A DNA stretch of 64,000 nucleotides, from NCBI GenBank assembly GCA_963743425.1, contig CAVUPU010000001.1:32150-96149 (forward strand), given 5' to 3'. Below the pieces are notes generated by a model, which saw only the letters and a list, made by a program, of their open reading frames with translations, was not told the origin of the DNA and did no database searches. Positions within the stretch are counted from its first letter, which is position 1, and every line of letters begins with the position of its first letter. This document shows positions 1,205 to 58,205 of this stretch, in pieces. The stretch is from an uncultured Acidobacteriota bacterium (lineage in GTDB: Bacteria > Acidobacteriota > Blastocatellia > RBC074). The translations under genes and the position numbers were made by a program.

Positions 1205-3414
1205 ATGCGTAAAACTTTCCTCTTAGTAATCTCACTCTGCATTATTTCATTCTGGATCGTTTCGGCTTCTGCAGGCGGCCCGGTCTTCTGGCGCGTCAAC
1301 ACCCGCGCCGAGATCGAAAGAGGCGACGCCCGCGGCGTTTCGATCGCCGACAATGGCTCGCTCACGCTGGCGCCCGCGCTGATCGAAGTCTTCGACACCA
1401 AACAGGCTTACATCTGGTCGGTCGCCGCCGACAAGGCTGGCAATATCTATCTGGGCACCGGGCACGAAGGGCGCGTCTTCAAGGTCGATCCGTCGGGCAA
1501 GGGGACGCTGCTCTATAAAACTTCCGAGCTTGACGTGATGTCGCTGGCTGTTGACGCGCAGGGCAATGTTTACGCGGGCACGTCGCCGGACGGCAAGATA
1601 TACCGCATCGCGCCCAGCGGCGAAGCGAAGGTCTTCTTCGAGCCGAACACGAAATACATCTGGTCGCTGGCCTTCGACGGTCAGGGACGATTGCTTGTGG
1701 GGACGGGTGACAAGGGCGTGATCTACCGTGTCAACGCCGACGGGACCGGCGCGCCGTTCGTGCGCCACTTCGCAAACCAATATCACCGCGCTGCGGGTCG
1801 CTCCATCAGGCGCCATCATCGCCGGGACCGATCCCGGCGGGCTGGTGATGCGGATTTCGCCCGAAGGCAAGGTCTTCACGCTCTTCGATTCGTCACAACG
1901 CGAGATACGCGACCTGGCGCTGGGGCGCAACGATGAAATATACGCGCTGGCCCTGGCCGAATCGGCCGGGAGTGGCGCGATGAACACCGCTCCGGCAGCC
2001 GCTCCAGTCGCGCCCACGACGCTCCCGCCGAACTCCGGCGAGGATGGCAGCGTGACCATCACGATCAGCGACATACAGGTGATTGACGCTTCGAGCTCGA
2101 CGCCTTCGGCCTCTTCATCCATCGGCAGCCAATCGAAGAGCGCCGTCTACCGGCTCGACGCCAACGGATTGAGCGATTTGATCTGGGATTCCAGAGAGGC
2201 CGTGGCGTTCGCGCTCAGCCGCCGACGGCGACGGACGGGTGCTGGTCGGCACTGGGCAGAAAGGTCGAATCTACCAGGCGGCGGCGGGCGAGAAGCCGAC
2301 GCTGATAGCCCAAACTTCCGAGGCGCAGACTTCGCGGCTCATTCGCGCGGGCGCCGGAGGGGATCAGCTCTTCGCCGCGGCGTCGAATCTGGGCAAGCTA
2401 TTCAGACTGTCGAACGAAACAGCGGCGAGCGGGACTTACACTTCATCCGTGCGCGACGCTCAGACCTCCGCGACCTGGGGGCGAGTGTCGTGGGTGGGTG
2501 AAGGCTCGATCGAATTGCAGACTCGCAGCGGCAATATCAGCAATCCGGATTCGACCTGGAGCGACTGGTCGGCGCCGATCACGGTCACGGACGGCGACTC
2601 GATCAAAAGCCCTCCGGCGCGCTTCATTCAATGGCGCGCCACGTTGAAGAAGACTCCCAACTCCCCTTCGCCGCGTCTGCGCGAAGTCACAGTCTCATAC
2701 CTGCCGCGAAATCTCGCGCCGAAGATCAACTCGATCAACGCCCTGCCGGCGGGAGTGTCGCTGCAGGCCCTGCCGCAACAGCAACCCGACGGCGGCGCCG
2801 ATCAGGCCGGACTCGACCCTTCGATTCTCGGCGCAATGGCGCAGATTCCGCCCCGCCGGGTCTTTCAGCGCGGAGCGATCTCGCTGCAATGGCAGGCCGA
2901 GGACAGGAACGGCGATACGATCGAATATTCGGTCTACTATCGCGACGCTTCGAACATCGGCGGCGAATTCTATCCGCTCAAGACCGGCTTGCGCGATAAC
3001 TATTACACCATTGACCCCAATGCGCTGCCCGACGGACGATATGTATTCAAAATCGTCGCGTCGGATGAGGCGTCGAACCCAGCCGCACAATCGCTCAAGG
3101 ACGAACAGGAGACCGAGCCGATCGAGGTGGACAACCTGCCGCCCGCCGTTGCCGCCGACGCCCCGCGCGCCAACGGCTCGAACGTCGAGATCGTGTTCCG
3201 GGCCGCCGACGCGACCTCGATCATCCGCAGGGCGGAATACCAGATCGACGGCGGCCCGTGGAAGACGGTCTTTCCGGTTGACGGCATCGCCGATTCGAAG
3301 CGCGAGGAATTCCGCGTGGCGCTGGTATTGGCCGATAAGAAACCGCACGTCGTCGCCTTGCGCGCGTTCGACGCGAACGCGAATGTCGGGAGCGCGCAGG
3401 CGACTGTAAAATGA
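1205..3414 (+). CDS. secreted beta-propeller repeat protein (Reg_prop-like blades N-terminally, Y_Y_Y/Ig-like C-terminus), split into three ORFs by two apparent +1 frameshifts near 1750 and 2235
   Basis: ATG at 1205 followed by a signal peptide (MRKTFLLVISLCIISFWIVSASA). Repeated blades of the form GNIYLGT...GRVFKVDPSG / GNVYAGTSPDGKIYRI / GRLLVGTGDKGVIYRV continue across ORFs 1076-1936, 1728-2501 and 2239-3414 in frames 2, 0 and 1. The C-terminus has DGRYVFKIVASDEASNPA. Confidence 0.6.
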
Positions 3415-4564: not shown

Positions 4565-4593
4565 TTGACAATAGAAGACTCAGGTTTTATATT
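4565..4593 (+). promoter_or_regulatory. sigma70-like promoter of hsp20 (TTGACA-17 nt-TATATT)
   Basis: -35 TTGACA at 4565-4570, -10 TATATT at 4588-4593 with a 17-nt spacer, about 110 nt upstream of the hsp20 ATG. Confidence 0.5.
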
Positions 4594-4701: not shown

Positions 4702-5187
4702 ATGTCATGGATGATCAAACGTGATCCGTTTAGCGAATTGCGAAACATTCAGGAGGATTTCAATCGAATCTTCAGTTCGACATTGCCACGGTTTTTCAGT
4801 GGCGAGGAAGGTTTGTTAGGCGGGAATTGGGCGCCGAACGTGGACATTTACGAGGACCAGAACTCGATCACGCTCGAAGCCGACCTGCCGGGGCTGAAGC
4901 CGGGCGATTTCAATCTTTCCATTGAAAACTACAGGCTCACTCTGAGTGGCGAGCGCAAGTACGATAAGGAGAAGAAAGGCGACAACTGGCGCCGGGTCGA
5001 GCGCAGCTACGGCAGCTTCACCCGCGCGTTCAGCCTGCCTTCGACGGTCAACGTCGACGCGGTTAACGCCGAGTTCAAAGACGGCGTGCTGCGCGTGACG
5101 CTGCCGAAGAAGGAGGAGGTCAAGGCCCGCCAGATTCAGGTGACAAGCGCCGACGCGAAGGGCGCGAAGGCGGCCGAAGCCAAATAA
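4702..5187 (+). CDS. Hsp20/alpha-crystallin family small heat-shock protein
   Basis: ACD-like sequence ([25 protein letters not shown]...GVLRVTLPK). RBS AAGGAGG 9 nt upstream of the ATG. Confidence 0.9.
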
Positions 5188-5200
5188 TCAGCGTCCATAA

Positions 5201-5317
5201 CCGCCAAGACGCCAAGGACGCCAAGGACGCCAAGAAAAAGCGAGATGAAAGGGTGAAGGGCCAATTCCTTTATCTTTTATCTTTTATCTTTTCTTGGCGA
5301 TCTTGGCGTCTTGGCGG
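5201..5317. repeat. inverted tandem-repeat array: (CGCCAAGR)x4 ... (CTTTTAT)x3 ... (CTTGGCG)x3, between hsp20 and clpB
   Basis: Direct reading. Left arm CGCCAAGA CGCCAAGGA CGCCAAGGA CGCCAAG. Right arm CTTGGCGAT CTTGGCGT CTTGGCGG, the reverse complement of the left. The listed clpB ORF (5253) starts artifactually inside it. Confidence 0.8.
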
Positions 5318-5333
5318 TTTACACGAGGAAGAG

Positions 5334-7928
<2,595 letters not shown>

Positions 7929-7931
<3 letters not shown>

Positions 7932-8075
7932 GGATTGCGGATTGCGGATTGCGGATTTATTGATTCCGAGAATCCTGTTTTCACTGCGTCGCCTCTTGCG
8001 CGAGATAGACCAATGACTATCAATCCGCAATCCGCAATCCGCAATCCGCAATCCGCAATCCGCAATCCGCAATCC
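7929..8075. repeat. inverted heptamer arrays (GGATTGC)x3 ... (CAATCCG)x7, between clpB and grpE
   Basis: Direct reading. The left arm is at 7932-7957 and the right arm at about 8021-8075, separated by roughly 60 nt. The arms differ in copy number. Confidence 0.8.
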
Positions 8076-8119
8076 GCAATCCCACTCCCGTTCATTGCAA
8101 CATCCTTATTGCGATGATA

Positions 8120-8135
8120 GATTGACCTGACCATC
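8120..8135. promoter_or_regulatory. short perfect palindrome TGACCATCCGTGGTCA upstream of grpE
   Basis: 6-4-6 inverted repeat that overlaps the GTG start of the listed 8137 ORF. It may be an operator, or it may be incidental. Confidence 0.25.
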
Positions 8136-8181
8136 CGTGGTCATCAAGCTTGGCGATAATGAAAGGTTTTTACGTAGTGTT

Positions 8182-8913
8182 ATGAATTCCAATTTGGGTA
8201 ATCAGGAGCAGGGTCACAGCGCGGCCGAAGCGCATGAAGCCGAGACTCAGCCCACGGAGAGAACGACGGATCAGGGAGTCGAACCGGAATTGATAATGAC
8301 TGATAAACGCCGTGTCACGCCTGATGGGGAGGCCATCGAGCGCGAGCAGGATTTTCAGAAGGACTTGACGACCGAGCAGGTCGAAGCCCCATCCGAGGTC
8401 GAACAACTTCGAGCAAGATTGAAAGAGGTCGACGAGAAGCGCATCGAGGCCGAACGTCAGGTGCGCGATTTCGCGGATCGCTTCCGCCACGCGCAGGCGC
8501 AATTGAGGGCCGAGACCGACGAGCAGCGCGCTCGTCTGCAACGGACTTTCGACCAGAAGCTGGAAGCTGCGCGCGGTGATATTGTGGCAGGGCTGCTCGA
8601 TACTCTGGACAATCTCAAGCGCGCGGTCGCGGCGGCTGAAAAGAGCGACAATAAGAATTCCGACTTCATTGCGCTGTTGGATGGCGTGCGCGCCACGGCC
8701 AATATGTTCGAAGCCAAGATGCAGAGCCTGGGGTTGAGCGCGGTGCCCTCCACGGGAGAAGATTTCGACCCCGAAGTTCACGAAGCGGTGGAAATAGTCC
8801 CGGTTGCGAAAGACGAAGACAACCGGGTGATCGAAGAGTTCCAAACAGGATACAGGTTCGGCTCCCGCCTGCTGCGTCCGGCGCGCGTGCGCGTGGGCCG
8901 GGCGAATGAATAG
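8182..8913 (+). CDS. grpE: GrpE nucleotide exchange factor (start uncertain; candidates GTG 8137, ATG 8182, ATG 8296)
   Basis: Coiled-coil region followed by a GrpE C-terminal domain (...VEIVPVAKDEDNRVIEEFQTGYRFGSRLLRPARVRV). No dnaK or dnaJ nearby. Confidence 0.8.
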   Translation: MNSNLGNQEQGHSAAEAHEAETQPTERTTDQGVEPELIMTDKRRVTPDGEAIEREQDFQKDLTTEQVEAPSEVEQLRARLKEVDEKRIEAERQVRDFADRFRHAQAQLRAETDEQRARLQRTFDQKLEAARGDIVAGLLDTLDNLKRAVAAAEKSDNKNSDFIALLDGVRATANMFEAKMQSLGLSAVPSTGEDFDPEVHEAVEIVPVAKDEDNRVIEEFQTGYRFGSRLLRPARVRVGRANE

Positions 8914-8933
8914 CAAAGTGGATGAATGATAGA

Positions 8934-8989
8934 TGAATGGGACTTATAGGACTTATAGGACCTCCTATAAGTCCTATAAGTCCCATTCA
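8934..8989. repeat. 56-bp perfect palindrome (TGAATGGGACTTATAGGACTTATAGGAC|CTCCTATAAGTCCTATAAGTCCCATTCA) upstream of groEL
   Basis: Direct reading. Each arm carries a tandem 10-mer GACTTATAGG x2. It is preceded by GATGAATG x2. It is not a CIRCE element. Confidence 0.85.
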
Positions 8990-8992
8990 TGA

Positions 8993-10624
<1,632 letters not shown>

Positions 10625-10820: not shown

Positions 10821-13082
<2,262 letters not shown>

Positions 13083-13252
13083 TTTTGGAAATAAACGTAT
13101 TGGTTTTGCAAGAGGGTTCCGACTGATGATTGTTGGAACCCTTTCCGTTTTCATGAACCTTATGGCGGTTAGCAAATGCGTTTAAGGGACGGCAAGCGGT
13201 ACAGTACCGAAGGTCGCGCCACTTTCTATCGGTCCCGGGTTTTAGATCACCT

Positions 13253-15902: not shown

Positions 15903-15976
15903 AAGCTTTCGTGTTGGGATGTGACAAACGAACGCAGCCATCTTCGCATCGCGACAGGCTTCTAGCAAGAAAAGAT

Positions 15977-16090
15977 AGGTGTCAGGTGTCAGGTGTCAGG
16001 TGTCAGGTGTCAGGTGTCAGTAAAAGAATGACTACATGGATTCCTACTTGAAAACCTGAAACCTGAAACCTGAAACCTGAAACCTGACAC
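15977..16090. repeat. inverted heptamer arrays (GTGTCAG)x5 ... (CCTGAAA)x4-CCTGACAC abutting the ADOP stop codon
   Basis: Direct reading. On the ADOP coding strand, the stop TAG is followed directly by GTGTCAG (GTTTCAG)x4, about 35 nt of spacer, then (CTGACAC)x5. Confidence 0.85.
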
Positions 16091-18529
16091 CTATTCACAT
16101 CTGAGAGCGACCATCGGATCGACCTTCGCCGCGCGCCGGGCGGGAAGATAGCAGGCGATCAACACCACCAGCCCTAACAGCAGCGTCACGCTGGCGAACG
16201 TTACGATGTCGGTGGCGCTCACACCGTAGAGCACGCTCGACATCAGCCTCGTCAAAACCAGCGCGCCCGCCAGGCCTATCGCCAGCCCAGTGAGCGCCAG
16301 CCACATTCCCTGCTTCACGACAAGCCTCATAACGTCGCTCGACTCAGCGCCGAGCGCCATCCTTACGCCGATCTCGCGAGTCCGCTGGCTGGCGGCATAG
16401 GCCATCACGCCGTAAATGCCCAGCCCCGCGAGCAGAAGCGCCAGCAGCGCGAAACTGCCCGCCACCCACGCGCCCGCCTGCAGCGGGAGGAGCGAAAACC
16501 GCATGTGCTCGCTCATCGTCTTGACATCGTAAAGGGGCAGGTTCGCGTCGAGCCGCTCCACCTCGCGCCGAATCGTGTTGATTATGCTCTGCGGTTCGAC
16601 GCCGGTGTGGACGACGAGAGACATGTTTTCGTCGTACTCTCGCGCTATCGGGTAATAGACGAATGGCTGCGGGTCTTCGCCGAGAGTCCAGTACTTGCCG
16701 TCTTTCACGACGCCGACGACCTCGAAGCGCGGGTTGTCAGGTCCGCCTCGGCTCAGGCGCTTGCCGATTGGATTCTGCCCAGGCCAGAAGCGTCGCGCGA
16801 AAGTTTCGTTGACGATCACGACGCGCGACTCCTCTTTGTCCTCCTGCATCGTGAAATCGCGTCCTTCGAGCAATGGAATACCCATCGTCTCGAAATAACG
16901 CGGCCAGACAAGGCCGTATTGCACAGTGGGCAAATCGGAAGCGCGTGTGAACGGCTGGCCTTCGGCATAAATAATGCCGCCATTGAAATCAAGATTGAGT
17001 GGCAGAGAGTCAAGGTATGAGGCGGCGCGCACGCCTGGCAGCGATTCGACGCTCGTAATGAGTTGCTTGTAGAACTCGCGCCCGCGCGCCTCGTCATAGC
17101 CTTGCAGGCCCAGGTCAACCGACATCGTGATCCTGTTTTCGACCTCGAATCCCGGCCCGATCATTTGTACCTGTTGCAGACTGCGCACGATCAGCCCGGC
17201 GGCAATGAGCAAAAGAAGCGAAAGCGCCACCTGCGCGACGACCAATCCGTTGCGGAAACGCGAACGACGATAACCGCCAAGGCCGGCTTCATCCTTCAAT
17301 GCCGGGATCAGATCAACCTTGCTCGACTGCAGAGCCGGCGCCAGGCCGAAGAGCGCGCCGGTAATGAACGAAACGATCAGCGTGAAGGCCATCACGCGCC
17401 AATCGGGTCGCAGATCGATCAAGAGATTGAAATCTACCGGCGGCTTGAAGGCCGCGACCAGATCGATCATCCAGAGCGCGACCAACCAGCCCACGACTCC
17501 GCCGGCGAGCGATAGCGCCACGCTTTCAGTGAGCAACTGCCGTACGATTCTCAAACGCCCCGCGCCGAGCGACAAACGTATGGCGATTTCCCTGCGCCGC
17601 TGAGCCGCTCTCGCCAGCGACAAATTGGCCAGGTTCACGCAGGCGATCAGCAACACCAGCCCCACAGTCGCCATCAACACTCCCGCGAATCCCAATGTCC
17701 CATAACGGATTAACGGAACCGCCAGACCGGGCGGAGTGACGCTGAACGTCGTTTCACCGAGGCCCTGGTCCTCGCGCGCAAACTGCGCCAGCAACAGGGT
17801 GAGCGATTCACGCGCCTGTGTCGCGGTCACGCCCCGTTTCAGGCGACCAAACGCGAGGATCCCGCCGTTACCGCGATTTTCAAACCAACTCGATTCTCCC
17901 GGCGCGATTTGCTTCACCATCATCATTGGCGTGTAGAAATCCGGCTCGAAGATCAACACCGTTCCGCGAAACTCTTCGGGCGCGACGCCGATGATCGTGA
18001 AGTCGTGGCCATTGAGCTTGATCGTCTTGCCTACCAGGTTCGGATCGCCGCCGAAGCGACGCTGCCAACAGCCGTAGCTCACAACCGCGAGAGGATGCGC
18101 GCCCGGGACACGGTCTTCTTCCTGCGTGAACATTCGGCCTTTGAAGGCGCGCACGCCGAGCGTATCAAAATAATTACCCGAAGCCAGATAGCCAAAGACG
18201 CGCTCATTGACGCCGTTCTGACTCAGATTCATCGGCACAGGGATATATGCCGCCAGCCCGTCAAAGACTTCGTTCTTGTCGCGAAAATCTTTGTAGGTAG
18301 GATAAGAGTAAGCCCCGATGCTGGCGTCCTTCCTCAACGGAGTGACTTCGACGATCCGCTCCGGCTCCGCAATGGGCAGCGGCCGAAGCGCCACCGTGTT
18401 GACCAAACTGAAAATGGCTGTGTTCGCGCCGATTCCCAGGCCGAGCGTGATGATGGCGATTAATGTAAAGCCAGGCTTCCTCAACAACGTTCGCGCGCCG
18501 TAGCGCAGGTCTTGAAATAAAGTGTTCAT
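16091..18529 (-). CDS. ADOP-family ABC transporter permease (MacB-like, two FtsX modules with large periplasmic domains)
   Basis: N-terminal leader [22 protein letters not shown]. About 810 aa. Ends MVALRCE. The start was moved to ATG 18529, which has RBS GGAGGAAGG. Confidence 0.85.
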
Positions 18530-18545
18530 CGTCCTTCCTCCTTGT

Positions 18546-19908
18546 TTATTCGTTTTTCCCCAACGTGTAATCACCTTTGCGTTCACCGGGAATGAGCGTC
18601 CAGCCCGCGTTCAACTCCAGCGTCCAGCCATCGCCCTGAATCGGTTTGGGGGCCGGATCACGCGGAGCGGGGACCCGGATTTGAGAAAAGGCAGGGTTCA
18701 TCAACGCGCCCTCTGAAACAGTCAGTATTCCCCATACATCCACGATCCTGATGTTGGGATAAACCGTGCCGAGATCATCGAGCGGCTGGAGATTGTTCGG
18801 GTCGAACTGCATATTCATTTGGCGGAGCGGGACCACCAGAGCAGGCCCGTCAACCAAACGCGCGCGCCAGGCGGCGATGCGACGCCGGCGATCATTTTCA
18901 CGCTCAGTCTCCGAGGCGCGGAGCGCGTCTGAGGCGTAACGCCGGGCGGCTTCGGCTATTGCCTGTCCGATGTTCGGAGGCGGTTTCAGGGCCATCGCTC
19001 GTTGCAGCAGGAGTCCGAAATCGCTCTCCGGTCTCAATCCCTTTCTCCATTCCTTTCCGGCTTCATCAAGCAACAGCCCATAAGCAGGGCCGGACGCATA
19101 AGCGAACGAGCGCGTAAAAGATCGGCTGCGCTCCGCTTCCTTGAGCTGGCGCGCGGCGAATTGAACACCCGGCCTGCCGCTCAATCTGACGCCGGAGTAC
19201 TCAGCCAGGCCTTCGTGCATTTCCAACGCCCGCTCTTCCTGCTCGGCTTTTGGAAAGAGCGTCCTTCGATAGGCGCGAAAGATCAAGGCGTCGCTGACTG
19301 CCTGCCGGCGCTGCTTCCCTCGCCGCTTCAACCCCAACTCGAGCGCGCGCCATTCAAGTTGCAGCCAGACACGCCCCTCCATCGAATCCAGATGGCTATT
19401 GGACGGCATTGAGCCAGGTAAGCCGAGCTGATCCTGAATGCGATGCCACAATTCATGGATACATGAATCCTGCTCGATCGAATTGATCGGCGGGCAAAGG
19501 CCAGATCATCGTCGCCCACTTCACCCCCGCCCATTCAACGGCAGTATTGGCAATGTTCATCTGATTGGGGAGCTTCCCGACAAAGACCTCGCCGGAGCTT
19601 TTCAATCGCCCTTCACGGTCGCCTTGATTGGCCACCACCGCGCGCGTTTTCGCATCGACGAAAAGCATCGGCCCGCATAGCGAAACGCCCCAGAGCTTGC
19701 CGTTGTCCCGCCGGCATGATGCCTCCGCCTCACTGAAATATTGGCGCGCCATAGAAAGGTCAATTGGCGAATCTTGCGCCGCCACGTCGAAGATCGCCGC
19801 GCCGGCGCCCATGCCGAGCGCCAGCGTGGCGCCAGCAGTCCAAGTGAAAACACATCGCTTCAACAACGTTCGCGCGCCGTACCGCAGGCCTTGCCACAGT
19901 GTTTGCAT
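18546..19908 (-). CDS. chimeric or frameshifted gene: ADOP-type leader ([17 protein letters not shown] plus a TM segment) fused to an unrelated soluble domain; frame break at ~19452
   Basis: ORFs 19453-19908 and 18546-19451 are adjacent on the minus strand in different frames. Only the first ~45 residues resemble ADOP proteins. Confidence 0.45.
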
Positions 19909-19924
19909 AATTCCTCCAAGAGAA

Positions 19925-20015
19925 GATGCCAGATGCTGGATGTCAGATGTCAGTGAGAGAGCATTGCCGCCACTCTTCTACCAACATCGAACATCTGACA
20001 TCTGATATCTGACAT
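19925..20015. repeat. inverted heptamer arrays (GATGYYR)x4 ... (ACATCTG / ATATCTG)x4 abutting the ADOP stop codon
   Basis: Direct reading. The coding-strand stop TAG is followed by ATGTCAG ATATCAG ATGTCAG ATGTTCG... The units resemble the terminal codons of the ADOP gene (...AGATGCGAATAG). Confidence 0.8.
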
Positions 20016-22514
20016 CTATTCGCATCTGAGCGCGATCATCGGATCCACCTTCGTCGCCCGTCGCGCCGGAACGAGCGCGGCGAGCAACGCTACTCCCACC
20101 AGCAACAACGCGACACCGGCAAAAGTCGCCGGATCGGTGGCGCTCACGCCGAAGAGCAGGCTCGCGAGCAGCCGCGTCAACAACAACGAGCCGATGACGC
20201 CGATCGTCGCGCCGGCGGCGATCAGCATTCCGCCCTGCCCCATCACCAGCCTCAGAACGTCTCCGGCCGTCGCGCCTAAAGCCATCCTGACGCCGATCTC
20301 CTTTGTCCGCTCTGCGACCGCGTAAGCCATCACGCCGTAGACGCCCATCACAGCGAGGGCGAGCGCGACGGCGGCGAAGACCGAGAAGATGACCAGGCTG
20401 AAGCGGCGTTGGTCGAGCGAGGAGGAGAAGATTTGTTGAATCGTGCGGAAACTGACAGGCAATTCCGGGTTGAGCGCGCGCGTCGTCCGGCTCATAGCGG
20501 CAGTGAGCGTCGCCGGGTCGGCCTGCGCCCGCACGACGATTGAGATCTGCGAAAGCGGTGGGCGCTGGAGCGCATTGCCATAGACCGTCGGCTGCGCGTC
20601 AGCATCCAGTCCGTCGGCGCGCACATCGCCGACGACGCCGACAATGTGCAACAGGCGCAGATCAGTGTCCATGTTCCCGAACTGAATGCGCTTGCCTATC
20701 GGGTCTTCATTCGGCCAGTACTTCCGGGCGAGCGACTGGCTGATGACCGCTACGTGTTGGCCTTCGAGCCTGTCGCCCTCGTCGAAGACGCGGCCCTTCA
20801 CAAGCGGGATACCCGCCGCGGCGAAGTAGCCCACGCTCGCAACGCGGTAATCGGCGTAGCCTATCTTCGCCGGGTTATTGTCAATCCAGAATGTTCCGTC
20901 GCCGCGATCGCCGTCCATTGGCACGCCGTTGACGCCGCCGATCGCGACGACGCCGGGCAGGTTTCTGAGACCGTCGAGCAACTGCCGATAAAACAGCGTC
21001 TGCCGCCACCGATACTCTACATATTCGTCCGGCTCGGGCAGGCTCTCCGGCATGCCGCCTCCCTCCATCATCCGCTCGAAGGCTCGCACGACTTGCTGTT
21101 CGTGCCGTCCGCGATCCGGGCCGGTGTAATCCGGCAATGACAGATCCATAACGATGGCGCTCTCGGCGCGGAAGCCGGGATCAACCTGAAGCAGCCGGTA
21201 AAAACTCTTGCCGAGCAGCCCCGCCCCCGTCAGCAGCGCGAGCGTCAAAGCCACCTGCGCCACGACGAGCGCGCTCCGCAGCCGGTTGCTCGTAGCTTGC
21301 CCCGCCTGGCCGCGCCCGCCGTCCTTCAGGTTGTCGTGCAGTTCGTTTTGCGAGAGTCGCGCGACCGGCGCGAGGCCGAGCGCGACCGCGATGAACAACG
21401 CGAGGCCGAGCGTAAAACCGAGCGCCCGCATGTCCACTCCGATCTCATCTGCGCGCGGCACACTGCCAGGATTCAATCCGATTAGCAGGTCCACGCCCCA
21501 GAGCGCAAATAGCGCGCCGAGCGCCCCGGCGATCAGAGCCAGCAGCGCATTCTCCGTCACGAACTGCGCCGCAAGTCTCCGCCTCGTCGCCCCGAGCGCA
21601 GCGCGCACGGCAAGCTCTTTCTGCCGCGCCGTCATTTGCGCGAGCAACAGGTTCGCCACGTTCGCGCAAGCCACCATCAACAGAAATCCGACGGCGGCGA
21701 GGACGATCAGCAACAGGTTCTTCGTGTCGCCGACTATGAACTCGTGGATCGGGATCGCGGCAATGTCCACGGCGTCTACGTCCTTGCCGTGTTCCTGCTT
21801 GATCTGCCTGGCGATGGCGCTCAGGTCGGAGCGGGCCTGCTCGATCGTTACGCCGCTCTTGAGCCGCGCAAACACGCTCCAGTTGTGCGCCGAGCGTGAG
21901 GTCTCTGGCGGAAGTAGCTCGCGCGGCGCCCACACATCGAATCCCTGTGGGAAACTGAAGCCCGGCGGCATCACGCCGACCACATCGAAGACCCGATCGC
22001 TGATCAGCAGTCTCACTCCGGCCAGATCAGCGCGCCCGCCGAGTCCCCTCTGCCAGAAGCCGTGGCTGACTACGGCTATCTGCTTGCCGCCGTCTTTAGC
22101 ATCTTCAGGCAGGAACGCTCGACCGGCGAGCGGCGCGACACCCAACACGCGGAAGAAATCATTCGTCGCGAAGAGTACTCGCGCACGCAACGGCTCGCTG
22201 CCGCCCGTTACCGTCTCCATCCCACCGGCGTACTCGGCGACGGCTTCGAGGCTGCGGTTGCGCTTGCGCACATCGCGGAAGTTCGGGTCGGTGAAGGCCA
22301 CCGGGCGGCCCTTCTCGTTCACCTCGCGCATCTGCACGACACGGTCAGCCCCAGGATAAGGCAGCGAACGTAGCAGCGCCGCGTCCACGATGCTGAAGAT
22401 GGCCGTGCAGGCGCCAATGCCCAGCGCCAATGTCAGTACGGCGATCGAGGTAAAGCCGGGCTTCTTCAGCAACATTCGCGCGCCGTAGCGCAGGTCTTGT
22501 AAGAGTGTTTGCAT
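20016..22514 (-). CDS. ADOP-family ABC transporter permease (MacB-like)
   Basis: [22 protein letters not shown] leader. 832 aa. Ends MIALRCE. Confidence 0.85.
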
Positions 22515-22813: not shown

Positions 22814-23139
22814 AACCAGGCAATCATAGCGCGAACTGTCGAGCTAAAGTTTCTACAGATGTCTTTGCGCCAGAGGCGCAGCGGATATTAGCCGGTGGTG
22901 GAGCGAAGCGTAACCACCGGAACCGGTGGAGTGATCTATTCCAGCCCCGGAGGGGCGACAGACCGAGCCTCAGTCTGTCGCCCCTCCGGGGCTGGGTTGA
23001 TGATCTCGATCGCATCCGGTGGTTTCTCCACCGGCTAATATCCGGCGTCCCTCCGGGACGAAGAGTAATCCCGGATTTGTATAGAAACTTTAGCTGCCGA
23101 GTTTGCGCCGCTTCCGCAACTGAGCGTGTAAATTTCGAT

Positions 23140-23432: not shown

Positions 23433-23531
23433 CATTTTCCATTTTCCATTTTAGATTTGTCATTTGTCATTGACTGAGAGGAACTGAGCGCAATGACAAA
23501 TGACAAATCTAAAATGGAAAATGGAAAATGG
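23433..23531. repeat. hairpin element built from heptamer repeats (CCATTTT)x3, (GTCATTT)x2, a 20-nt loop, then (AATGACA)x2, (AAATGGA)x3
   Basis: Direct reading. It has perfect 33-bp arms and lies between convergent genes. It shares motifs with the element at 54886-54996. Confidence 0.8.
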
Positions 23532-23558: not shown

Positions 23559-24590
23559 TCAATACTCACACAGCGGGCTGTGGACCTCGTACCGTTTGAC
23601 GTCCTTGAAGCCTTCGCCCTGATGGCAATCCGCGCAGATCGGCGCCCGTAAGACGCGGCGGTGTTTGAAGCTCGAATTGGCGTGGACCTGATGGCAGCTC
23701 AGACAGGTGATTGATTCATTGCCGTATAGCGCGACGTCACGCGCGTTGCGCCAGACGTGGCGGTCTCCCGCGTTCAGCTTCTGATCATCGGCCTTGGCCC
23801 AATCCACTTCCAAATCCTGAAACAGATTGTCGCCCGCCACGAAATTGTTTTGGTAGGGCAGACCCGTTGACCGCGATTTCGATTCGCGCAGGTGGCATTG
23901 CGCGCAGATCGAGGTAATCGCCCTGGCGTCATTGCGCCGCTTTTTCGACAACAGGACCAGCGATGTGTCATTGGTGTGATTGAGGTCAACGGGGCCGTGG
24001 CAGGTGTAGCAATCCAGCCCGAACGCGCTGAAGGCTCTGGTCTCGGGATCAACCGCTGTCGTGTGACAGCCCGCGCACCGGTTGGCGAACTTTTCTTTGT
24101 CCCACGCGAGCTTCTCGTGATCAATCAACGTAGCAGGTTGGCCGTTCGCGCCGAGCGCGGCCTGCGCATTGAGCATAGTGAATTTGCCGTAGCCCTCTTT
24201 CTTCAGAAAGCGCACGCGGCGCCGGCTGCCGATGAAGTATTCGATTTGCTTCGCGGCGTCTGCAAGAGCCGGCAAGGATTCAAGCATTTTGGTCAATTCC
24301 GGCGCATCTTCGCGCTGCCGCACCGTAACGCCGTGCGCGTTCTTCTGCCACGAGGGGCCGATGTCGTTACGATGGCAGAAGAGGCATTCGTCGCCGTGCA
24401 CGAATTCCGGGATCGGTTTGCCGACGTGATTGCCGCCCCATGCTTTCGGATCAACCGGCTTCTGCTCCGGCTTGTTCTGATCCTGTCCGCTCGCGGCGCC
24501 GTTGAAGCATAGAGCGAAAAGCGCGAACGCGCAAACAACCAGCGACTTTGCGATGGCGGTTGGCCGCGTGATTTTGCTTCTCGAACGCAT
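23559..24590 (-). CDS. hexaheme c-type cytochrome (six CxxCH motifs), secreted
   Basis: CLFCH, CAGCH, CYTCH, CAQCH, CLSCH and CADCH. Signal peptide follows the internal Met (MRSRSKITRPTAIAKSLVVCAFALFA). Start set at 24590. Confidence 0.8.
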   Translation of the reverse strand: MRSRSKITRPTAIAKSLVVCAFALFALCFNGAASGQDQNKPEQKPVDPKAWGGNHVGKPIPEFVHGDECLFCHRNDIGPSWQKNAHGVTVRQREDAPELTKMLESLPALADAAKQIEYFIGSRRRVRFLKKEGYGKFTMLNAQAALGANGQPATLIDHEKLAWDKEKFANRCAGCHTTAVDPETRAFSAFGLDCYTCHGPVDLNHTNDTSLVLLSKKRRNDARAITSICAQCHLRESKSRSTGLPYQNNFVAGDNLFQDLEVDWAKADDQKLNAGDRHVWRNARDVALYGNESITCLSCHQVHANSSFKHRRVLRAPICADCHQGEGFKDVKRYEVHSPLCEY

Positions 24591-24607
24591 GAGGCTATTG
24601 AAGATCG

Positions 24608-24700
24608 CCCCTGGGTACGCATCGCTTCCAGCGTGCGAGGCTCCGATCAAAGACCGAGTAATGGAAGCCTCGCACGCTGGAAGCGATGCGTACCCAGGGG
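24608..24700. repeat. GTAC-type perfect hairpin (34-bp arms CCCCTGGGTACGCATCGCTTCCAGCGTGCGAGGC, 25-nt loop)
   Basis: Direct reading. It sits between two co-directional genes. Confidence 0.8.
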
Positions 24701-27309: not shown

Positions 27310-28733
27310 TATCCTCTCTTCAGGTCTTCATTGAGCGAGTTCAAGAACGCGACAAGCGGAGCGATCTCCGCCGCGCCGATCCTGATCTTCGCCAACTCCT
27401 CATCGCCTTCGCGGACGCGACCCGCGCGGGCCATATCGCTTAAACGAATTATCTCTCCCAAAGTTTCTTCCAGCGTTTGAATAGAGCCGTTGTGAAAATA
27501 GGGATGCGTGTAAGCCAGATTGCGCAGCGTTGGCGTTTTGAACGTGGCGATCATCCTTCGCAGGAAAATGTCATCACTCTCTCCGGCGCGGCGCAGCGGC
27601 GATGTTTTCAGATCAACGAAATTCCAGAAGCCCAGGTCAGTCTCGCCCGGCTTCTCCTTCGACGGATTTTCGCGGAACTGCGCCGACGGGCGGCGCGCCG
27701 ACGCGGCGTCAGGAATCGCCAGCGCCGCGAATTTGCCTTCGCCACCATCACTATGGACGCGATCGTAATCAACCTGGCTGACACCCTTGTTGTGAAATGA
27801 AAAATCGGTGAAGAGCGGCGGCGTATGGCAGGTCGCGCAATTGCCAGCTTTCGTGTCGAAGAATATCTTCAGCCCTTTGAGCGCCGCCGCGTTGAAATCC
27901 CTCGTGAGCTTGATCGCGCCTTTCGACTCGATCGAATCGATCCCGGCCAGCAGCCGTCGCGCGAAGGCGTTGCCGTCTTCGCCCGGCGCGGGTTTGCTCT
28001 CCAACCGGTTGGCTTCGATGAATTTGTCGTAGGGAGAATCTTTGCGCGTGTTGAGCGTGCGGATGAAGCCGGCCAGGGCTTTGGCTATCAGTTCGACTAC
28101 TTCGTCGCGGCCGAGTTTTTCAACGTCAACGTTGAACGCCGCTTTGAACTGATTTCGATACGACTCCGCGCCGTCGTCATTCGATATGACGGCGCGCGCG
28201 CGTTCGAAGGCCTGGGCCTCTTCGCCCGGCAGCCATCCCATCGGACGCCCCGAGATGGTGCCTCTGACCAGTTCTTCCAGCGAGCCGAATTCGCCGTCGT
28301 GATGCAGCCGGGGCATTTCAGCCACGTCGAAGATCGTCGGCGAATTTCGCAACCCGAGCCGGCGGCGGTCCTGCGCGCGCGACGAGACCCAGCTTCGGTT
28401 GAAGAAATCGGCGTAGGCGCGCAAGCCCTGCGGGTCCTGGTTGAACAGATGGCAATTGCTGCAACTCGCGGGCAGGTCTCCCTCGGGAGTCGAGAACCGG
28501 TCGTCGTTGAACAAACGCTCGCCTAGATGGATTACGGCTGATCTTTCCTGTTTCTGTTGAGATTGGCCGAGCGCGGGTCGAGTGAGATCGCCTGTTAAGC
28601 GTGAAAGCGCCAGACAAAAAAATGTCAGACAGAAAAACAGGAAGCGGGGAATGGGGAATGGGGAATGGGGAATGGGGGGCTTTTCCTCTGTTCCCACTCC
28701 CCACTCCCCACTCCCCGTCTTTCTGTCTGACAT
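27306..28733 (-). CDS. di-heme cytochrome c peroxidase (CCP/MauG family)
   Basis: Two CxxCH motifs (CSNCH, CATCH) with CCP-like spacing. It overlaps the PQQ-DH start by 4 bp. Its N-terminal region is encoded through the repeat array at 28609-28749, so the start is uncertain (28733 or 28754). Confidence 0.8.
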
Positions 28734-28749
28734 TTTTCTGTCTCCTCTT
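28609..28749. repeat. composite palindrome: outer 18-bp arms AAAAATGTCAGACAGAAA/TTTCTGTCTGACATTTTT enclosing (GGGGAAT)x4 ... (CCCCACT)x3
   Basis: Direct reading. It overlaps the 5' end of the CCP ORF. Confidence 0.8.
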
Positions 28750-28779: not shown

Positions 28780-29754
28780 TCACTCCTTGATCGGATGGCC
28801 TTCGATCAATTCGATGCGAATTTTATCCGGCCCTTCGATGAATGCGAATTTGATCTTGCCGCCGGCGACCGAACGAATCTCATCTGTCACTTTGACGCCG
28901 TCTTTGCGCAGCTTCTCCAAAGCTTCAGGCAGATTCGCGACGCTGAATCCGACGTGGTCAACGACGCGGCCCTTGGTCGATTCAAGCTCGGTCTTGCCTT
29001 TCCAATGCTCAGGATAAGCCTTCTTCGGGTACTCGACCGGATAGATGATGATGTTGACGTTGTCCATCGCGAGCGACATCGAAGGGCCGATCTGGTAGCT
29101 GCGATAAAAACGGGGTTCGCGCGACGGCGCGCGAGTCCCGCGACGTTTGGCGCCGAAATACTTCTCATACCATTCGCCGGCCGCCACCGGGTCGGCGCTG
29201 AACATGTGCAGGTGGCCGAAGTGATGATGCCCCGCCGTGTTGATCTCGATCAGAGCTTTGTCCGGGCTTTCGATGTAGGCGTAAAAGAACCGCCCTGTGG
29301 CGCCGGTATTGCCGCCGATGTCGCTGATGTCCGTCAACGGCGTGAAGAACTTCGTGCCCGCGGCCACATGCTTTTCATAAGTCGCCTTCATATCCTCCGC
29401 GCCCCAGCCGAAATGCCATATCGCCGAAGTCAATTCCCAGGGCGGGGCCTTTTCGACTTTGGTGAACAGCAACCAGGATTTCTGCGCCCAGACCGCGTCG
29501 AGCATTCCAGCGAACTTCGCCTTCTCGCAATCGAATTTCGAGGTGTAGAAATCAATCGCGCCTTTCGGGTCGAGGGTATTCAGGTGCAGGTGATGGAAAT
29601 GGGCTTCGGGAAACTGCGCCTCGGCGGGTTTGTTTTCCGCAGTCGGCGGCTTCGTCTCCTGCGCGTTGAAGCCGGATACGCACAACGCCAACGCCGCTAA
29701 AAAGAGAAGAAAGCTGACTGGTACAGGCCATAGCCAATTTTTTTTCCTAAGCAT
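28780..29754 (-). CDS. VOC-family protein (glyoxalase/bleomycin-resistance/extradiol dioxygenase fold, two modules), secreted
   Basis: Signal peptide. Paired beta-alpha-beta-beta-beta modules with His/Glu metal ligands (HFHHLHL..., HVGFSV). Confidence 0.7.
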
Positions 29755-29771
29755 GGAGATTTCTCCGTAAT

Positions 29772-29854
29772 GTAGGGGCAGACCTGCGTGTCTGCCCCGG
29801 TTTCAGGAAGGCGCGCCTCATCACACCGGGACAGACACACAGGTCTGCCCCTAC
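29772..29854. repeat. hairpin element GTAGGGGCAGACCTGCGTGTCTGCCCCGG ... CCGGGACAGACACACAGGTCTGCCCCTAC; each arm is itself a hairpin
   Basis: Direct reading. There are two mismatches between the arms. Confidence 0.75.
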
Positions 29855-29944
29855 GTTGTCGCAATTAACGCGGCCAAAAATGGGCGCCCCAACGCGCCGG
29901 ATTGCGCATCAGACCGCCCATTCATCGCTTGCCGCGGGAGCGGT

Positions 29945-31492
<1,548 letters not shown>

Positions 31493-31516
31493 ATGATGAC
31501 TCCTTGGGGAAAGGTT

Positions 31517-31577
31517 CGTAGTACCGCCTTCAGGCGGAAGCGGAATCCTTCCGCTTCCGCCTGAAGGCGGTACTACG
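31517..31577. repeat. GTAC-type perfect hairpin CGTAGTACCGCCTTCAGGCGGAAGCGGAATCC|TTCCGCTTCCGCCTGAAGGCGGTACTACG
   Basis: Direct reading. Confidence 0.8.
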
Positions 31578-31587
31578 AACGCAATAT

Positions 31588-34131: not shown

Positions 34132-36585
34132 ATGCAAACACTGTTGCAAGACCTGCGCTACGGCGCGCGAATGTTGCTTAAGAAACCCGGTTTTACGTTA
34201 ATTGCCGTCATCACGCTTGCGCTGGGCATCGGAGCGAACACGGCGATCTTTACTGTAGTCAATGGTGTGCTGCTGCGCCCGCTGCCTTACGACGAGCCGG
34301 ATCGGTTGGTGATGCTCTGGGAGAGCGATCCGCGCCGGAATATCGAGCGGCAGCGGGTTGCGCCGCCGAACCTGGTTGAGTGGCGGGAGCAGAGTCGCTC
34401 TTTTGAAGACATCGCGTACTGGACGGGCAATGGCGAGTTCAATCTGGTAACGGCCGATGGCATCGAAAAGGCAATGTGCGCTTACGTCACGTCGAGTCTC
34501 TTCTCGACCTTGCGCGTCAGGCCGCATCTGGGCCGCGCGTTCCTGCCGGAAGAGGATCAGCTCGAAGGCAATCGCGTCGCGCTTCTCAGTTACGAATACT
34601 GGCAGCGGCGCTTTGCCGCGGACCCGCAGGTGATTGGCAGGACGCTGACAATGGATACGTTTGGCCGGCGCGATTACACCGTCGTCGGCGTAATGCAGCC
34701 TGGGTTCCGCTTCCCCAATCAGACGGAAATCTGGTTGCCGGTGGGATGGGACGGCATTCCCAGAGCGCGCCGCGGCAATTGGCTATCAGTGATCGCGCGG
34801 CTCAAGGACGGCGCGTCATTAACGCAAGCCCAGGCCGAAATGAACCTGATCCAGTCGCGCATCGAACAGCGACACCGCGAGGCCAGTCCGAGCGTCGTCA
34901 TTATCCCGCTGCTCGAACAGACGCTGGGCGCGAGGTTGAGTTCGGCGTTGCTGATTTTGTGGGGCGTCGTCGCGTGCGTTTTGTTGATTGCGTGCGCGAA
35001 TGTCGCCAACCTGCTGCTGGCACGCGCCGCCGACCGGCACAAAGAGATCGCCATCCGGCTGGCGTTGGGCGGAAGCCGATGGCGGATGGTCCGGCAGTTG
35101 CTGACTGAATGCATGTCGCTGGCGTTCCTGGGCGGCGCCTTCGGCGCGCTGCTGGCCGGTTGGAGTCTCAAGCTGTTGATCGCCTTCAACGCCGACCACA
35201 TCCCGCGACTAGGTGAGACACGATTGGATGGTCGGTCGCTGGCTTTCACGACGTTGGCCACCTGCCTGACCGGCTTGCTCTTCGGCCTCGCGTCCGCCTG
35301 GCAAACGACGAAGCCTGATTTGAACGTCGCGCTGAAAGACAGCGGCGGAGGCGCGACCGGTGGTTTGCGGCGCAACCGGTTGCGCGCACTTTTGATCGTC
35401 GCCGAGGTCGCGCTGTCAATGTTGTTGTTGATCGGGGCGGGCTTGATGATCCGTAGCTTCGCGCAGATGACGCGCGTTGATCGCGGCTTTCGACCGGATC
35501 ACCTGTTGACCGCGAAACTCGATTTCTCAGTCTCTGGCTTCACCACCTGGGTCAGGCCGACCGAGACGCGACCGCAGGTAACGATACGCGAATTGATAGA
35601 GCGCCTGAAGAATCAGCCCGGCGCGCAAGCGGTCGGCGCCACGAGCGACAAGGCGGGCTTCCAGATCACAGTCGAAAACCGCCAGACCGGCGTGGAAGAA
35701 GATTATCCGCGCACAAGTTTTCAGGGCGTTACATCGGACTACTTCCGCGCGATGGGCGTTCCGATGCTGCAAGGCCGCACATTCAACGAGGCCGACTCCT
35801 TGGAAGCGCCGCGCGTCGCCATCCTCAGCGAAGCGCTGGCGAAGCGATGTTTCCCCAACGAGAATCCCATCGGCAAACGGATTTATCTCGGCCGCTTGAA
35901 CCCCGGCCAGGTTGGCGAGCTTGATCGATGGACGAACGTGACGTTGTGGGCAGAGATTGTCGGCGTCGTGGCGGATGTGAAGAGCATGAGCCTCGACCCG
36001 CAGGTCGAATCTAATGTCTACGTTCCTTACTTGCAGTGGCCGATGCAAACGCCGACGCTCTTCGTGCGGACGGCGGGGAACCCGGCCAACTTCGCGGCGG
36101 CGCTCTACAGCGAAGTCAAAGCCTTGAACAAAAACCTGCCCACGCCGAAAGTTCAGACGATGAACGAGCGGCTCTCCGACGTAGTTGCGGAGCCACGCTT
36201 TCAAACCTTGTTGCTTGGCTTGTTCGGTCTCGTGGCGCTGGTCCTTGTCAGCGCTGGCATCTACGGCGTCGTCTCGTATTCGGTCGCGCAGCGCACACAA
36301 GAGATCGGCATACGCATGGCGCTTGGCGCAGGCGCGCGCGATGTCTTGCGGCTCGTGATCGGGCAGGGTATGAAGCTTGTGTTGATCGGCCTCGCCATCG
36401 GCTTGGCTGGAGCATTGGCGCTGACTCGTTTGATGAAGACTTTGTTGTTCGGCGTGAGCGCCAGCGATCCGCTGACGTTCGGCTCGATTACGCTGCTGCT
36501 TGCGCTCGTCGCGCTGCTGGCGTGCTGGATTCCGGCTCGCCGCGCTATCAGGGTCAATCCAATAGTGGCGTTGCGGCGCGAATGA
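34132..36585 (+). CDS. ADOP-family ABC transporter permease (MacB-like)
   Basis: [22 protein letters not shown] leader. 817 aa. Ends IVALRRE. Confidence 0.85.
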
Positions 36586-36680
36586 GGCGCGCAATTTTAT
36601 ATCGTCCTGCCGGATGCGATGCGTTATTATCCCGCCTCCCATATGCCGATTTGTCTGCCCCATCGCGCTGCGAGGTTTCT

Positions 36681-37052: not shown

Positions 37053-37220
37053 CGTTTATTGTCAGAGCATCACTATACAGTCGCATTATGTTCGCGCTGG
37101 CTCGAAAGTTGGGATTCGCTATCCTGACCAACGCCGCTGACTCTGGATTCACGTTATGCAATGCGACGGCCACGATTGTGCTCAGTCATTTTCTGCTCCA
37201 ACCCTAGAGGAGATTGGCTA

Positions 37221-38505: not shown

Positions 38506-38539
38506 GTGCATGACATCCGACATCTGACATCTGCCCTTA

Positions 38540-54885: not shown

Positions 54886-54996
54886 TTTTCTCTTTTCCAT
54901 TTTCCGCTTGTCATTATTCCATTTGTCATTGTGTATCGGCGCAACCCGGCAATGGCGCCTGAAAAATGGCAAGTGGAAAATGGAAAATGAACAAGG
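54886..54996. repeat. imperfect palindrome of heptamer repeats (TTTCCAT / TTGTCATT ... AATGGCA / GGAAAAT) upstream of the kinase gene
   Basis: Direct reading. It is related in motif content to the element at 23433-23531. Confidence 0.7.
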
Positions 54997-58030: not shown

Positions 58031-58205
58031 ATCATCGTTTCGGCCACTGGCGAGATTGGAACAGCAGGAACCGCGGATTTTCACGGATGCCACGGATTGT
58101 CACGGATAATCCGCATTGATCCGTCGCATCCGTGAAAATCCGCGGTTGCTCATCGTCCTGATGTGGCCGGCTCTGATTTGGATAAGTGGCCGAAACGATG
58201 ATCAA
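58031..58205. repeat. nested inverted-repeat element: outer 19-bp IR TGATCATCGTTTCGGCCAC / GTGGCCGAAACGATGATCA enclosing a hairpin with 20-bp perfect arms and internal CACGGAT repeats
   Basis: Direct reading. It is MITE-like. It lies immediately upstream of the BNR gene and overlaps that gene's listed 5' extension. Confidence 0.75.

Follow-up and report, generated by a model that had tools for sequence, protein, structure and literature searches.

A 64,000-nucleotide stretch of DNA from an uncultured soil bacterium of the Acidobacteriota (class Blastocatellia; contig CAVUPU010000001.1, positions 32,150 to 96,149; the whole of this stretch is referred to as the window) raises the question of why so many of its intergenic gaps harbor two arrays of short tandem repeats, the second consisting of the reverse complement of the unit in the first. 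Our results clearly demonstrate that these array hairpins are real, abundant, and lineage-wide. They lie directly behind stop codons, related genomes have them between the same genes but with their repeat units replaced, and they are biased in orientation relative to transcription. On the basis of these sequence comparisons, we tentatively favor the reading that they are stem-loops of transcript 3' ends and intercistronic regions, built by slippage. The sequence-only reading of the window from which this analysis started had not recognized them as a described class of element, but inverted pairs of GGGAATC heptamer arrays have been reported in Xanthomonas (Rehm et al. 2015, PLoS One, PMC4692102).

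Tandem Repeats Finder (TRF), direct reading of the sequence, and RNA folding agree on one geometry across many intergenic loci, in which tandem units of 7 to 10 nt are followed by a spacer and then by reverse-complement units. TRF identifies 17 arrays of period 7 in the window; 30 dinucleotide-preserving shuffles of it average 1.3 and never exceed 5. When a pair is defined strictly, as two arrays no more than 150 nt apart whose consensus units are reverse-complement rotations of each other with at most one mismatch, the window contains seven inverted pairs and the 30 shuffles contain none. By reading and folding, nine loci (hairpins A to I in Table 1) form single long stem-loops with stems of 25 to 53 bp, with energies of -42 to -97 kcal/mol and z scores of -4.0 to -12.9, and at none of the nine was the real energy matched by any of 200 shuffles. 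Paired convergent 7-nt arrays with at least two copies each, the form described from Xanthomonas, are thus present as seven strict pairs, or as nine loci by reading and folding. Both the common geometry and the potential for long hairpins had been proposed in the sequence-only reading and are borne out; eight of its nine loci are confirmed, the ninth (38505-38535) is an array without a partner, and hairpin C is additional to its list. The idea that the arrays might be artifacts of assembly can be set aside, as assemblies produced independently by different pipelines from different samples (JGI, Logan, and NCBI metagenome-assembled genomes [MAGs]) contain identical arrays, namely, in L165 and L166, in L162 and L163, and in L170 and L171, while L168 and L169 differ by one single-nucleotide polymorphism.

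Table 1. Array hairpins and the lone array of the window. Positions are those of the window; gene neighbors were assigned by Pfam.
Feature	Position	Strand	Setting	Fold energy (kcal/mol)	z score
Hairpin A	5199..5319	+	hsp20 (4702-5187) / clpB (5334-7931) gap, intercistronic	-68.4	-9.4
Hairpin B	7905..8088	+	clpB / grpE gap, begins within last clpB codons	-90.1	-7.4
Hairpin C	8933..8990	+	grpE (8137-8913) / groEL (9017-10624) gap, intercistronic	-46.3	-12.0
Hairpin D	15975..16094	-	from stop of MacB/FtsX permease gene (16091-18586) to 26 nt before start of SDR gene (15949)	-67	-9.0
Hairpin E	19924..20017	-	starts at TAG stop of second MacB/FtsX permease gene (20016-22514)	-42.1	-4.0
Hairpin F	23433..23531	.	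multihaem cytochrome gene (23559-24650, -) / doubtful + strand ORF, apparently convergent	-62.2	-12.9
Hairpin G	28612..28743	-	glyoxalase gene (28780-29754, -) / cytochrome c peroxidase gene gap	-96.9	-12.6
Hairpin H	54886..54996	+	ECF sigma factor gene (54067-54825) / Ser/Thr kinase gene gap	-47.4	-6.9
Hairpin I	58066..58150	+	5' of BNR-repeat gene (58186-59301)	-59.8	-11.3
Lone array	38511..38533	.	(TGACATC)x3.3, the unit of hairpin E; without inverted partner, not a hairpin		+1.5

At least six unrelated unit types are found within the 64 kb, at a density of approximately one hairpin per 7 kb. Hairpin A consists of (CGCCAAGGA)x3.8 at 5202-5234 and (TCTTGGCGA)x2.9 at 5292-5316, read directly as CGCCAAG(G)A and TCTTGGCG(A), respectively, and has a one-sided inner array, (TTTATCT)x3.4, in its loop region (5269-5292). 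Hairpin B is a nested composite with an outer array, (GGGAATG)x3.6 at 7910-7934, and inner arrays, (GGATTGC)x3.7 at 7932-7957 and (CAATCCG)x8.9 at 8021-8082; the sequence-only reading had put these inner arms at 3 and 7 copies, which was correct as to their inequality but not as to the figures. Hairpin C has perfect 28-nt arms of GGACTTATA 9-mers and a loop of 2 to 4 nt. On its sense (-) strand, hairpin D, with arrays spanning 15977-16092, reads TAG-GTGTCAG-(GTTTCAG)x4 ... (CTGACAC)x6, and hairpin E, which is paralogous to it, has (ATGTCAG)n and (CTGACAT)n arms. Hairpin F has perfect 40-nt arms of nested units (CCATTTT x3 outside, GTCATTT x2.4 inside), and the composite arms of hairpin H (CCATTTT plus GTCATT) are those of F, with an unrelated loop and flanks. 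The sense strand of hairpin G contains an inner (GGGGAGU)n/(CCCCAUU)n core between non-repetitive A-rich and U-rich outer arms and forms 53 pairs, including G.U pairs, of which there are 7 on the sense strand and 2 on the antisense strand. Hairpin I is made of 9- to 10-nt units with a CGGAT core, the variable spacers of which are mirrored by the opposite arm, so that arm complementarity in register is 0.97 whereas unit-to-unit identity is 0.45. The claim that each locus has its own unit holds in part (CGCCAAGGA, GGATTGC, GGACTTATA, GRTGTCA, CCATTTT, GTCATTT, and CGGAT-N4 are among the units of the window), but GRTGTCA is common to the arrays at 15977, 19924, and 38511, F and H have the same composite arms, and GGGRAAT-like units occur in two arrays, the outer array at 7910-7934 and that at 28646-28677. 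Around the lone array, the region 36036-38610 contains overlapping ORFs with an FtsX domain (37498-38610), which overrun the end of the convergent NAD-glutamate dehydrogenase gene (38540-42604) by 70 nt. A MacB-type permease gene that has been frameshifted or has decayed may be present here, and its lost 3' end would explain the lone GATGTCA array.

Positions relative to genes were counted for 26 array hairpins from the window and 16 related loci. Twenty are in gaps flanked by co-directional genes, 4 in convergent gaps, and 1 in a divergent gap, where the gaps on offer numbered 148, 25, and 23, respectively. The median distance from the upstream stop codon to the start of the array is approximately 0 to 2 nt, and some 30 nt separate the end of the array from the next start codon, space for just a Shine-Dalgarno sequence. 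The stop codon itself is often part of a unit, as is the case for the TAG of clpB and for TAG-GTGTCAG and TAG-ATGTCAG in the two macB genes. Both the orientation classes and the distance to the stop codon link the arrays to gene 3' ends, and the positional rules are those of the Xanthomonas arrays: intergenic, nearer the upstream ORF, and rare between divergent ORFs. By a rough gene map, some 33 gaps between genes in the window are 60 nt or longer, and approximately 9 of them, about a quarter, carry a hairpin.

Three of the hairpins are found in a chaperone gene cluster with the order hsp20, A, clpB, B, grpE, C, and groEL, and with a promoter match upstream of hsp20 at 4565-4593. As hairpins A and C are followed by the next start codon within 15 to 26 nt, which leaves no space for a promoter, they should reside inside hsp20-clpB and grpE-groEL transcripts. 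Hairpin B begins inside clpB: the clpB stop codon (TAG, 7929-7931) is located inside a repeat unit (...GGGAATAGGGATT). Outer repeat units (GGGAATG or GGGAGTG) encode the last 7 to 9 codons of clpB, with a variant unit supplying the TAG stop, in the window (7905-7931) as in L161 (8815-8841) and L167 (approximately 3385-3410). The array thus enters the coding sequence, providing ClpB with a variable Gly/Ser-rich C-terminal tail.

How the hairpins evolve could be followed in relatives. The ClpB of the window is 84% identical to that of an Acidobacteria MAG and 72 to 73% identical to those of Pyrinomonadaceae MAGs; a metagenome scan with ClpB provided no relative above 75% identity, and nearer relatives were reached via GrpE homologs, which are 84 to 91% identical and carry the source name "Blastocatellia bacterium." Syntenic contigs from seven related genomes (L001, L161, L162, L165, L167, L168, and L170) together with the window make eight genomes, and all eight have a hairpin at all three of the junctions hsp20-clpB, clpB-grpE, and grpE-groEL. 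At hsp20-clpB, the units are, depending on the genome, CGCCAAGGA, GGGAGTG, GGGTAGT, GATCGRG, or CAGTTTT, and L162 has a plain, repeat-free GC hairpin. The clpB-grpE junction has six or more unit types among the eight genomes; GGATTGC is present there in the window, L001, and L167, with copy numbers in the two arms of 3.7/8.9, 5.6/2.7, and approximately 2/4.6, respectively. At grpE-groEL, all genomes except L001 have a 9-mer with a TAGGAC core in 2 to 4 copies per arm, the variable positions of which are mirrored across the arms, as illustrated by L161 (GGACTTATA GGACGTATA GGAACTATG in one arm and ...CATAGTTCC TATACGTCC TATAAGTCC in the other). The flanking genes of the window are 85 to 92% identical in DNA sequence to those of the relatives (71 to 78% for L001), yet the units have been replaced, indicating that the arrays change far more rapidly than the DNA around them, with their architecture retained. 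Retention of position, which is known from Xanthomonas together with variation of array length between species, is observed at all three junctions, and such variation in the GGATTGC arms at clpB-grpE.

A strongly conserved noncoding block lies 3' of hairpin B and before grpE. In all genomes it contains TTGCAA-N17-TAGATT (8096-8124 in the window); the segment 8096-8160 and the matching block in L161-L171 continue with an inverted repeat, TGACC-N6-GGTCA, that is not CIRCE-like (controlling inverted repeat of chaperone expression). By its sequence, this block is probably the heat-shock promoter and operator of grpE-groEL.

Beyond the eight genomes, a survey of 160 clpB loci across the bacteria indicated that inverted arrays cluster in the acidobacterial relatives, with few other contigs harboring them. 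The density of period-7 arrays is 10.4 per 100 kb in Blastocatellia-like sequence (317 kb) and 0.8 per 100 kb in other loci (2.1 Mb). The best local fold energy 3' of clpB at 57 loci did not set the lineage apart, as raw minimum free energy (MFE) follows GC content and the more distant Pyrinomonadaceae have a different synteny. Fold energy per nucleotide, compared between all 3' intergenic regions and coding controls, was too noisy to serve as a statistic. Single-linkage clustering of the heptamer units from different loci joined unrelated units into chains and was disregarded. Outside the lineage, hairpins of a CACAGAG-NN 9-mer recur within 8 kb of the Thermodesulfobacteriota MAG L013 (13486-13565, 16692-16788, and 17586-17664), and the same unit is found in the Pyrinomonadaceae MAG L002 (21973-22060), i.e., one unit family is present in distant phyla. 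Our literature searches found no account of such elements in Acidobacteria.

Within the hairpins, the palindrome is better conserved than the tandem repeat, since in 11 of 13 hairpins the complementarity of the arms in register (0.86 to 1.00) exceeds the identity of units within an arm (0.45 to 0.91). Unit variants are mirrored between the arms in L161 and L167. At locus D, the variant unit GTTTCAG fills the 5' arm in the window and in L168, leaving one U.C mismatch per heptad; L162 has perfect GTGTCAG/CTGACAC pairing at this locus. Arm copy numbers are unequal, as in hairpin B and in L005 (17.6/7.9), and their variation between species and between arms signifies that gain and loss of units certainly occurs.

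The suggestion of active slippage in the sequence-only reading is supported insofar as copy numbers have changed over evolution. On a shorter scale, four pairs of strains from independent samples that cover an array and are 99.9 to 100% identical display no change in array length, although such pairs are too similar for much power. The sole length difference was found in a fifth pair, in which L164 (approximately 858-893) has an 18-nt tandem duplication (CATGATATTTCCATAGGA x2) relative to L162 (approximately 10826-10843). The duplication is located just 3' of hairpin C and before the groEL ribosome-binding site, in strains from different samples that are otherwise nearly identical. Short tandem duplication of intergenic DNA is evidently ongoing in this lineage. 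The turnover of the arrays themselves would be evolutionary in pace, and the four strain pairs, with their little power, give no sign of hypervariability of the phase variation type.

Do the hairpins act in RNA or in DNA? In 26 of the 32 hairpins, the 5' arm of the sense strand is the G-rich one (approximately 14 against 4 when independent unit families only are counted), and a strand-symmetric DNA structure would not predict such a polarity relative to transcription. Together with the fold z scores, the position at stop codons, the retention of position with changing units, the arm symmetry, and the lack of space for a promoter behind A and C, this polarity supports stem-loops at the level of the transcript, and a weak trend toward G.U pairs on the sense strand goes in the same direction; that the Xanthomonas heptamers follow the same positional rules we count as further support. 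From the anatomy, stop-codon position, unit turnover, arm symmetry, and orientation bias, which are direct observations, we infer that the functional form would be RNA. Like the repetitive extragenic palindromic (REP) and bacterial interspersed mosaic element (BIME) hairpins of Escherichia coli, the stem-loops could block 3' exonucleases, or they could act as partial terminators (attenuators) or as processing sites of the RNase III type. They would thereby punctuate operons (at hsp20-clpB and grpE-groEL) and set clpB apart from the grpE promoter. The sequence would be free to drift as long as the arms pair, with pairing and polarity alone being constrained. The arms may lengthen and be renewed as units of approximately 7 nt slip during replication within one arm, and mirror symmetry may be upheld either because pairing is selected or through intrastrand template switching from arm to arm, a process that is known for quasi-palindromes.

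Several results weigh against this transcript-level reading. A transition mismatch between the arms that is G.U on one strand is A.C on the opposite one, and in the arm alignments the sense strand has 43 G.U pairs and the antisense strand 30 (P = 0.16; 13 against 5 when hairpins are counted, P = 0.10), a trend only and not significant; counts based on MFE structures, summed over the hairpins, are about equal (73 and 76). Hairpin B of L170 folds much better on the antisense strand. The U.C mismatch at locus D is kept in two genomes, and perfect pairing is thus not strictly maintained. There is in general no U-tract after the stem (a mean of 2.25 T in 12 nt among 32 hairpins), and the stems are far longer than a terminator or a REP requires. 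Canonical terminators with T-runs are present elsewhere in the window (22813-22776 and 13111-13144), so that the array hairpins are not the sole 3'-end signal. Finally, the dominance of 7-nt units is left unexplained by any finding here.

The main rival, a serious one that we nevertheless consider somewhat unlikely, is that the arrays are a non-adaptive by-product of mutation. A high rate of short tandem duplication favoring 7 nt, together with the formation and correction of palindromes by intrastrand template switching, would fill unconstrained DNA behind stop codons, the stop codon side being the less constrained side of a gap. The complete turnover of units between genomes that are approximately 90% identical in flanking genes would be expected, as would unequal arms, a variant unit spreading uncompensated along one arm of hairpin D, a nonsignificant G.U strand bias, and the fresh duplication beside hairpin C. 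So would the general excess of tandem arrays, which for all periods together are 3.5-fold more frequent in the window than in the shuffles, those inside genes having periods that are multiples of 3. Mutation alone does not, however, readily account for a hairpin kept at every one of the three junctions in every genome despite unit replacement, once as a plain non-repetitive stem, and a strand-symmetric process would not place the G-rich arm first. Mirrored variants, moreover, hold the arms 0.86 to 1.00 complementary while units within an arm diverge to identities of 0.45 to 0.8.

At the other extreme, the stems at stop codons would be a selected, lineage-wide mark of gene ends in Blastocatellia, for example, for RNase III-type processing or coupled to ribosome release; pairing and G-first polarity would be selected, heptamer slippage would build and renew the stems, and the heptamers of Xanthomonas, cyanobacteria, and Beggiatoaceae would reflect the same process. 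We regard this larger claim as improbable.

The polarity and the tight link to stop codons, which point to the transcript, speak against an action at the DNA level, as cruciforms, as G-quadruplex/i-motif pairs, or as binding-site arrays of a regulatory or nucleoid protein, that would affect supercoiling, replication, or promoter activity. Several observations are in its favor: the G-rich GGGAATG, GGGGAAT, and GGGAGTG are similar to the quadruplex-forming GGGAATC of Xanthomonas (PMC4692102), the 9-mer loci with a fixed core and a variable spacer (TAGGAC-NNN, CGGAT-NNNN, and CACAGAG-NN) look like binding-site arrays, and the grpE-groEL unit is conserved across genomes and contains a -10-like hexamer, TATAAG; nor does the G.U test reject strand symmetry. 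But most units (GTGTCAG, CCATTTT, GGACTTATA, and CAGTTTT) cannot form a G-quadruplex, units that vary between loci, and between genomes at one locus, disfavor a sequence-specific binder, and a period of 7 bp does not keep phase with the helix. A DNA-level element therefore appears quite improbable.

Mobility would explain why hairpins F and H, 31 kb apart, have the same composite arms, why GRTGTCA arrays are found at three loci, and why CACAGAG-NN hairpins occur at least three times within 8 kb in L013 and again in the unrelated L002; in Xanthomonas, one unit occupies approximately 185 sites (PMC4692102). The elements would then be non-autonomous, of the type of MITEs (miniature inverted-repeat transposable elements) or REP doublets forming hairpins (REPINs), with repetitive arms, and would have spread to many intergenic sites. 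However, neither target-site duplications nor direct repeats flank F or H, the loops and flanks of which are unrelated, and the likeness of D and E follows from duplication of the macB gene next to them. Occupation of orthologous positions in eight genomes with differing units is the opposite of recent insertion. The hairpins have no GTAG head of the REP type, and no transposase of the RAYT type (REP-associated tyrosine transposase) was found among the 30 ORFs of the 64-kb window that were scanned against Pfam. This leaves mobility as a very improbable origin.

The window also contains a second class of palindrome, which is very long and intergenic (24608-24700, 29769-29857, 31514-31580, 46133-46211, 53852-53941, and 22941-22995, the last nested in 22862-23064). 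The arms of this class are 27 to 45 nt long, 85 to 100% complementary, GC-rich, and without tandem repeats; they often contain a small palindrome of their own and a GTAC-like motif near the base, and two share GCGAGGCT. These palindromes resemble REP doublets (REPIN-like), and the one at 53852 lies between divergent genes.

Canonical Rho-independent terminators are as poor a fit, and we consider it highly unlikely that the array hairpins belong to this class. Stable stem-loops directly 3' of stop codons, also between convergent genes, are what terminators would provide, hairpin B lies ahead of the conserved promoter-like block, and a T-rich stretch (TCTTTTCTT) follows the stem at locus D. A U-tract is nevertheless not general, a terminator scan of the window missed the array hairpins and returned as many candidates in total as the shuffles, and the stems of 25 to 53 bp are several times longer than those of known terminators. 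If termination at A and C were efficient, clpB and groEL would be silenced, as these hairpins lie so close to the start codons of essential chaperone genes that no promoter fits in between.

Further candidates were rejected: an RNA thermometer of the heat-shock genes (the Shine-Dalgarno sequences are not part of the stems, which at -46 to -90 kcal/mol would stay closed), a CIRCE/HrcA operator at groEL (the 9-mer matches 4 of 9 positions of the CIRCE half-site), GGA sites of the CsrA type (the motifs are buried within stems), and a CRISPR array (there are no unique spacers between direct repeats). A search of the window with Rfam 15 gave no match to the hairpin loci. Its lone hit was to group II intron domains V/VI at 61300-61376 on the minus strand, with a score of 49.5 bits (E = 1e-6); on the RNA, the ORF upstream of this hit (61650-62711, minus strand) has only a weak match to an IS1 transposase, not to a reverse transcriptase, and the intron may be ORF-less or degraded. 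A 54-nt tandem repeat at 50913-51055 (2.6 copies, 91% match) is in frame, with 18 codons per unit, in the ORF at 49637-51337.

Tandem heptamers are the most overrepresented long simple repeats of many bacterial genomes, and their purpose is an old question. Our finding overturns nothing, but it provides a testable handle on the role of these repeats, since the same boundaries with swapped units separate "structure matters" from "sequence matters" at concrete loci (hsp20-clpB, clpB-grpE, and grpE-groEL). If the hairpins are functional, they represent a new mode of operon punctuation in a major soil phylum; if not, they are the visible signature of a peculiar mutational regime of slippage and template switching. 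In practice, they break short-read assemblies, invade the 3' ends of genes, and will confuse predictors of terminators and small RNAs.

Among the known systems, REP and BIME hairpins stabilize upstream mRNA, attenuate transcription, and affect translation termination if very near the stop codon. In Enterobacteria and Pseudomonas, REPs share a single consensus with a GTAG head, number in the hundreds, and are mobilized by RAYT transposases. The array hairpins resemble REPs, BIMEs, and REPINs in being intergenic, often just 3' of stop codons, and within operons. They differ in that each locus has its own unit, with only F and H, and D and E next to their paralogous macB genes, sharing arms, and in that the arms are tandem arrays, without a common head motif or GTAG, in stems 2 to 4 times longer. 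Intrinsic terminators are likewise stem-loops 3' of genes, also in convergent gaps, and hairpin terminators without a U-tract have been proposed for Actinobacteria; here, in contrast, U-tracts are lacking, stems reach 25 to 53 bp, and several hairpins precede genes that need cotranscription.

The short tandemly repeated repetitive (STRR) sequences of cyanobacteria and the repeats of Beggiatoaceae are abundant intergenic tandem heptamers, with several unit types per genome in cyanobacteria, but they are almost all direct arrays just 5' of start codons, whereas those described here are inverted pairs at stop codons. The TAACTGA repeats of Beggiatoaceae form 169 direct sets and 1 indirect set in a Beggiatoa genome, and post-transcriptional roles have been proposed for intergenic tandem heptamers (MacGregor 2015, PMC4679880). 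In Haemophilus influenzae, heptamer repeats in the hmw1A and hmw2A promoters are phase-variable (PMC8262952 and PMC12721329). These are also 7-nt tandem units in noncoding DNA that change copy number by slippage, but they are single direct arrays in promoters or 5' untranslated regions that vary between isolates, while the arrays here are paired, inverted, located at 3' ends, and identical in near-identical strain pairs.

The closest parallel is provided by Xanthomonas. In the genomes of X. campestris and X. axonopodis, Rehm et al. reported approximately 185 GGGAATC arrays, typically of about 4 units, including 70 to 75 convergent pairs per genome that are able to form a stem-loop. Of these arrays, 89 to 93% are intergenic, with mean distances of 28 nt to the upstream ORF and 160 nt to the downstream one, only 7 to 8% are between divergent genes, and species usually share the positions but differ in array length (PMC4692102). 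The authors stress the formation of G-quadruplexes and leave the function open. The two systems have in common inverted tandem heptamer pairs, the same positional rules, and conservation of position with change in length. Xanthomonas, however, has one dominant G-rich unit (GGGAATC or GGGANTN), read as a quadruplex former, at about one array per 27 kb, whereas the Acidobacteriota window has at least six unit types, mostly incapable of forming quadruplexes, at approximately one hairpin per 7 kb, with frequent nested composites. Replacement of units at orthologous sites, arm symmetry usually above tandem identity, and a polarity linked to transcription, which we found neither in Rehm et al. nor in our literature searches, are features added here to what is known of bacterial heptamer repeats.

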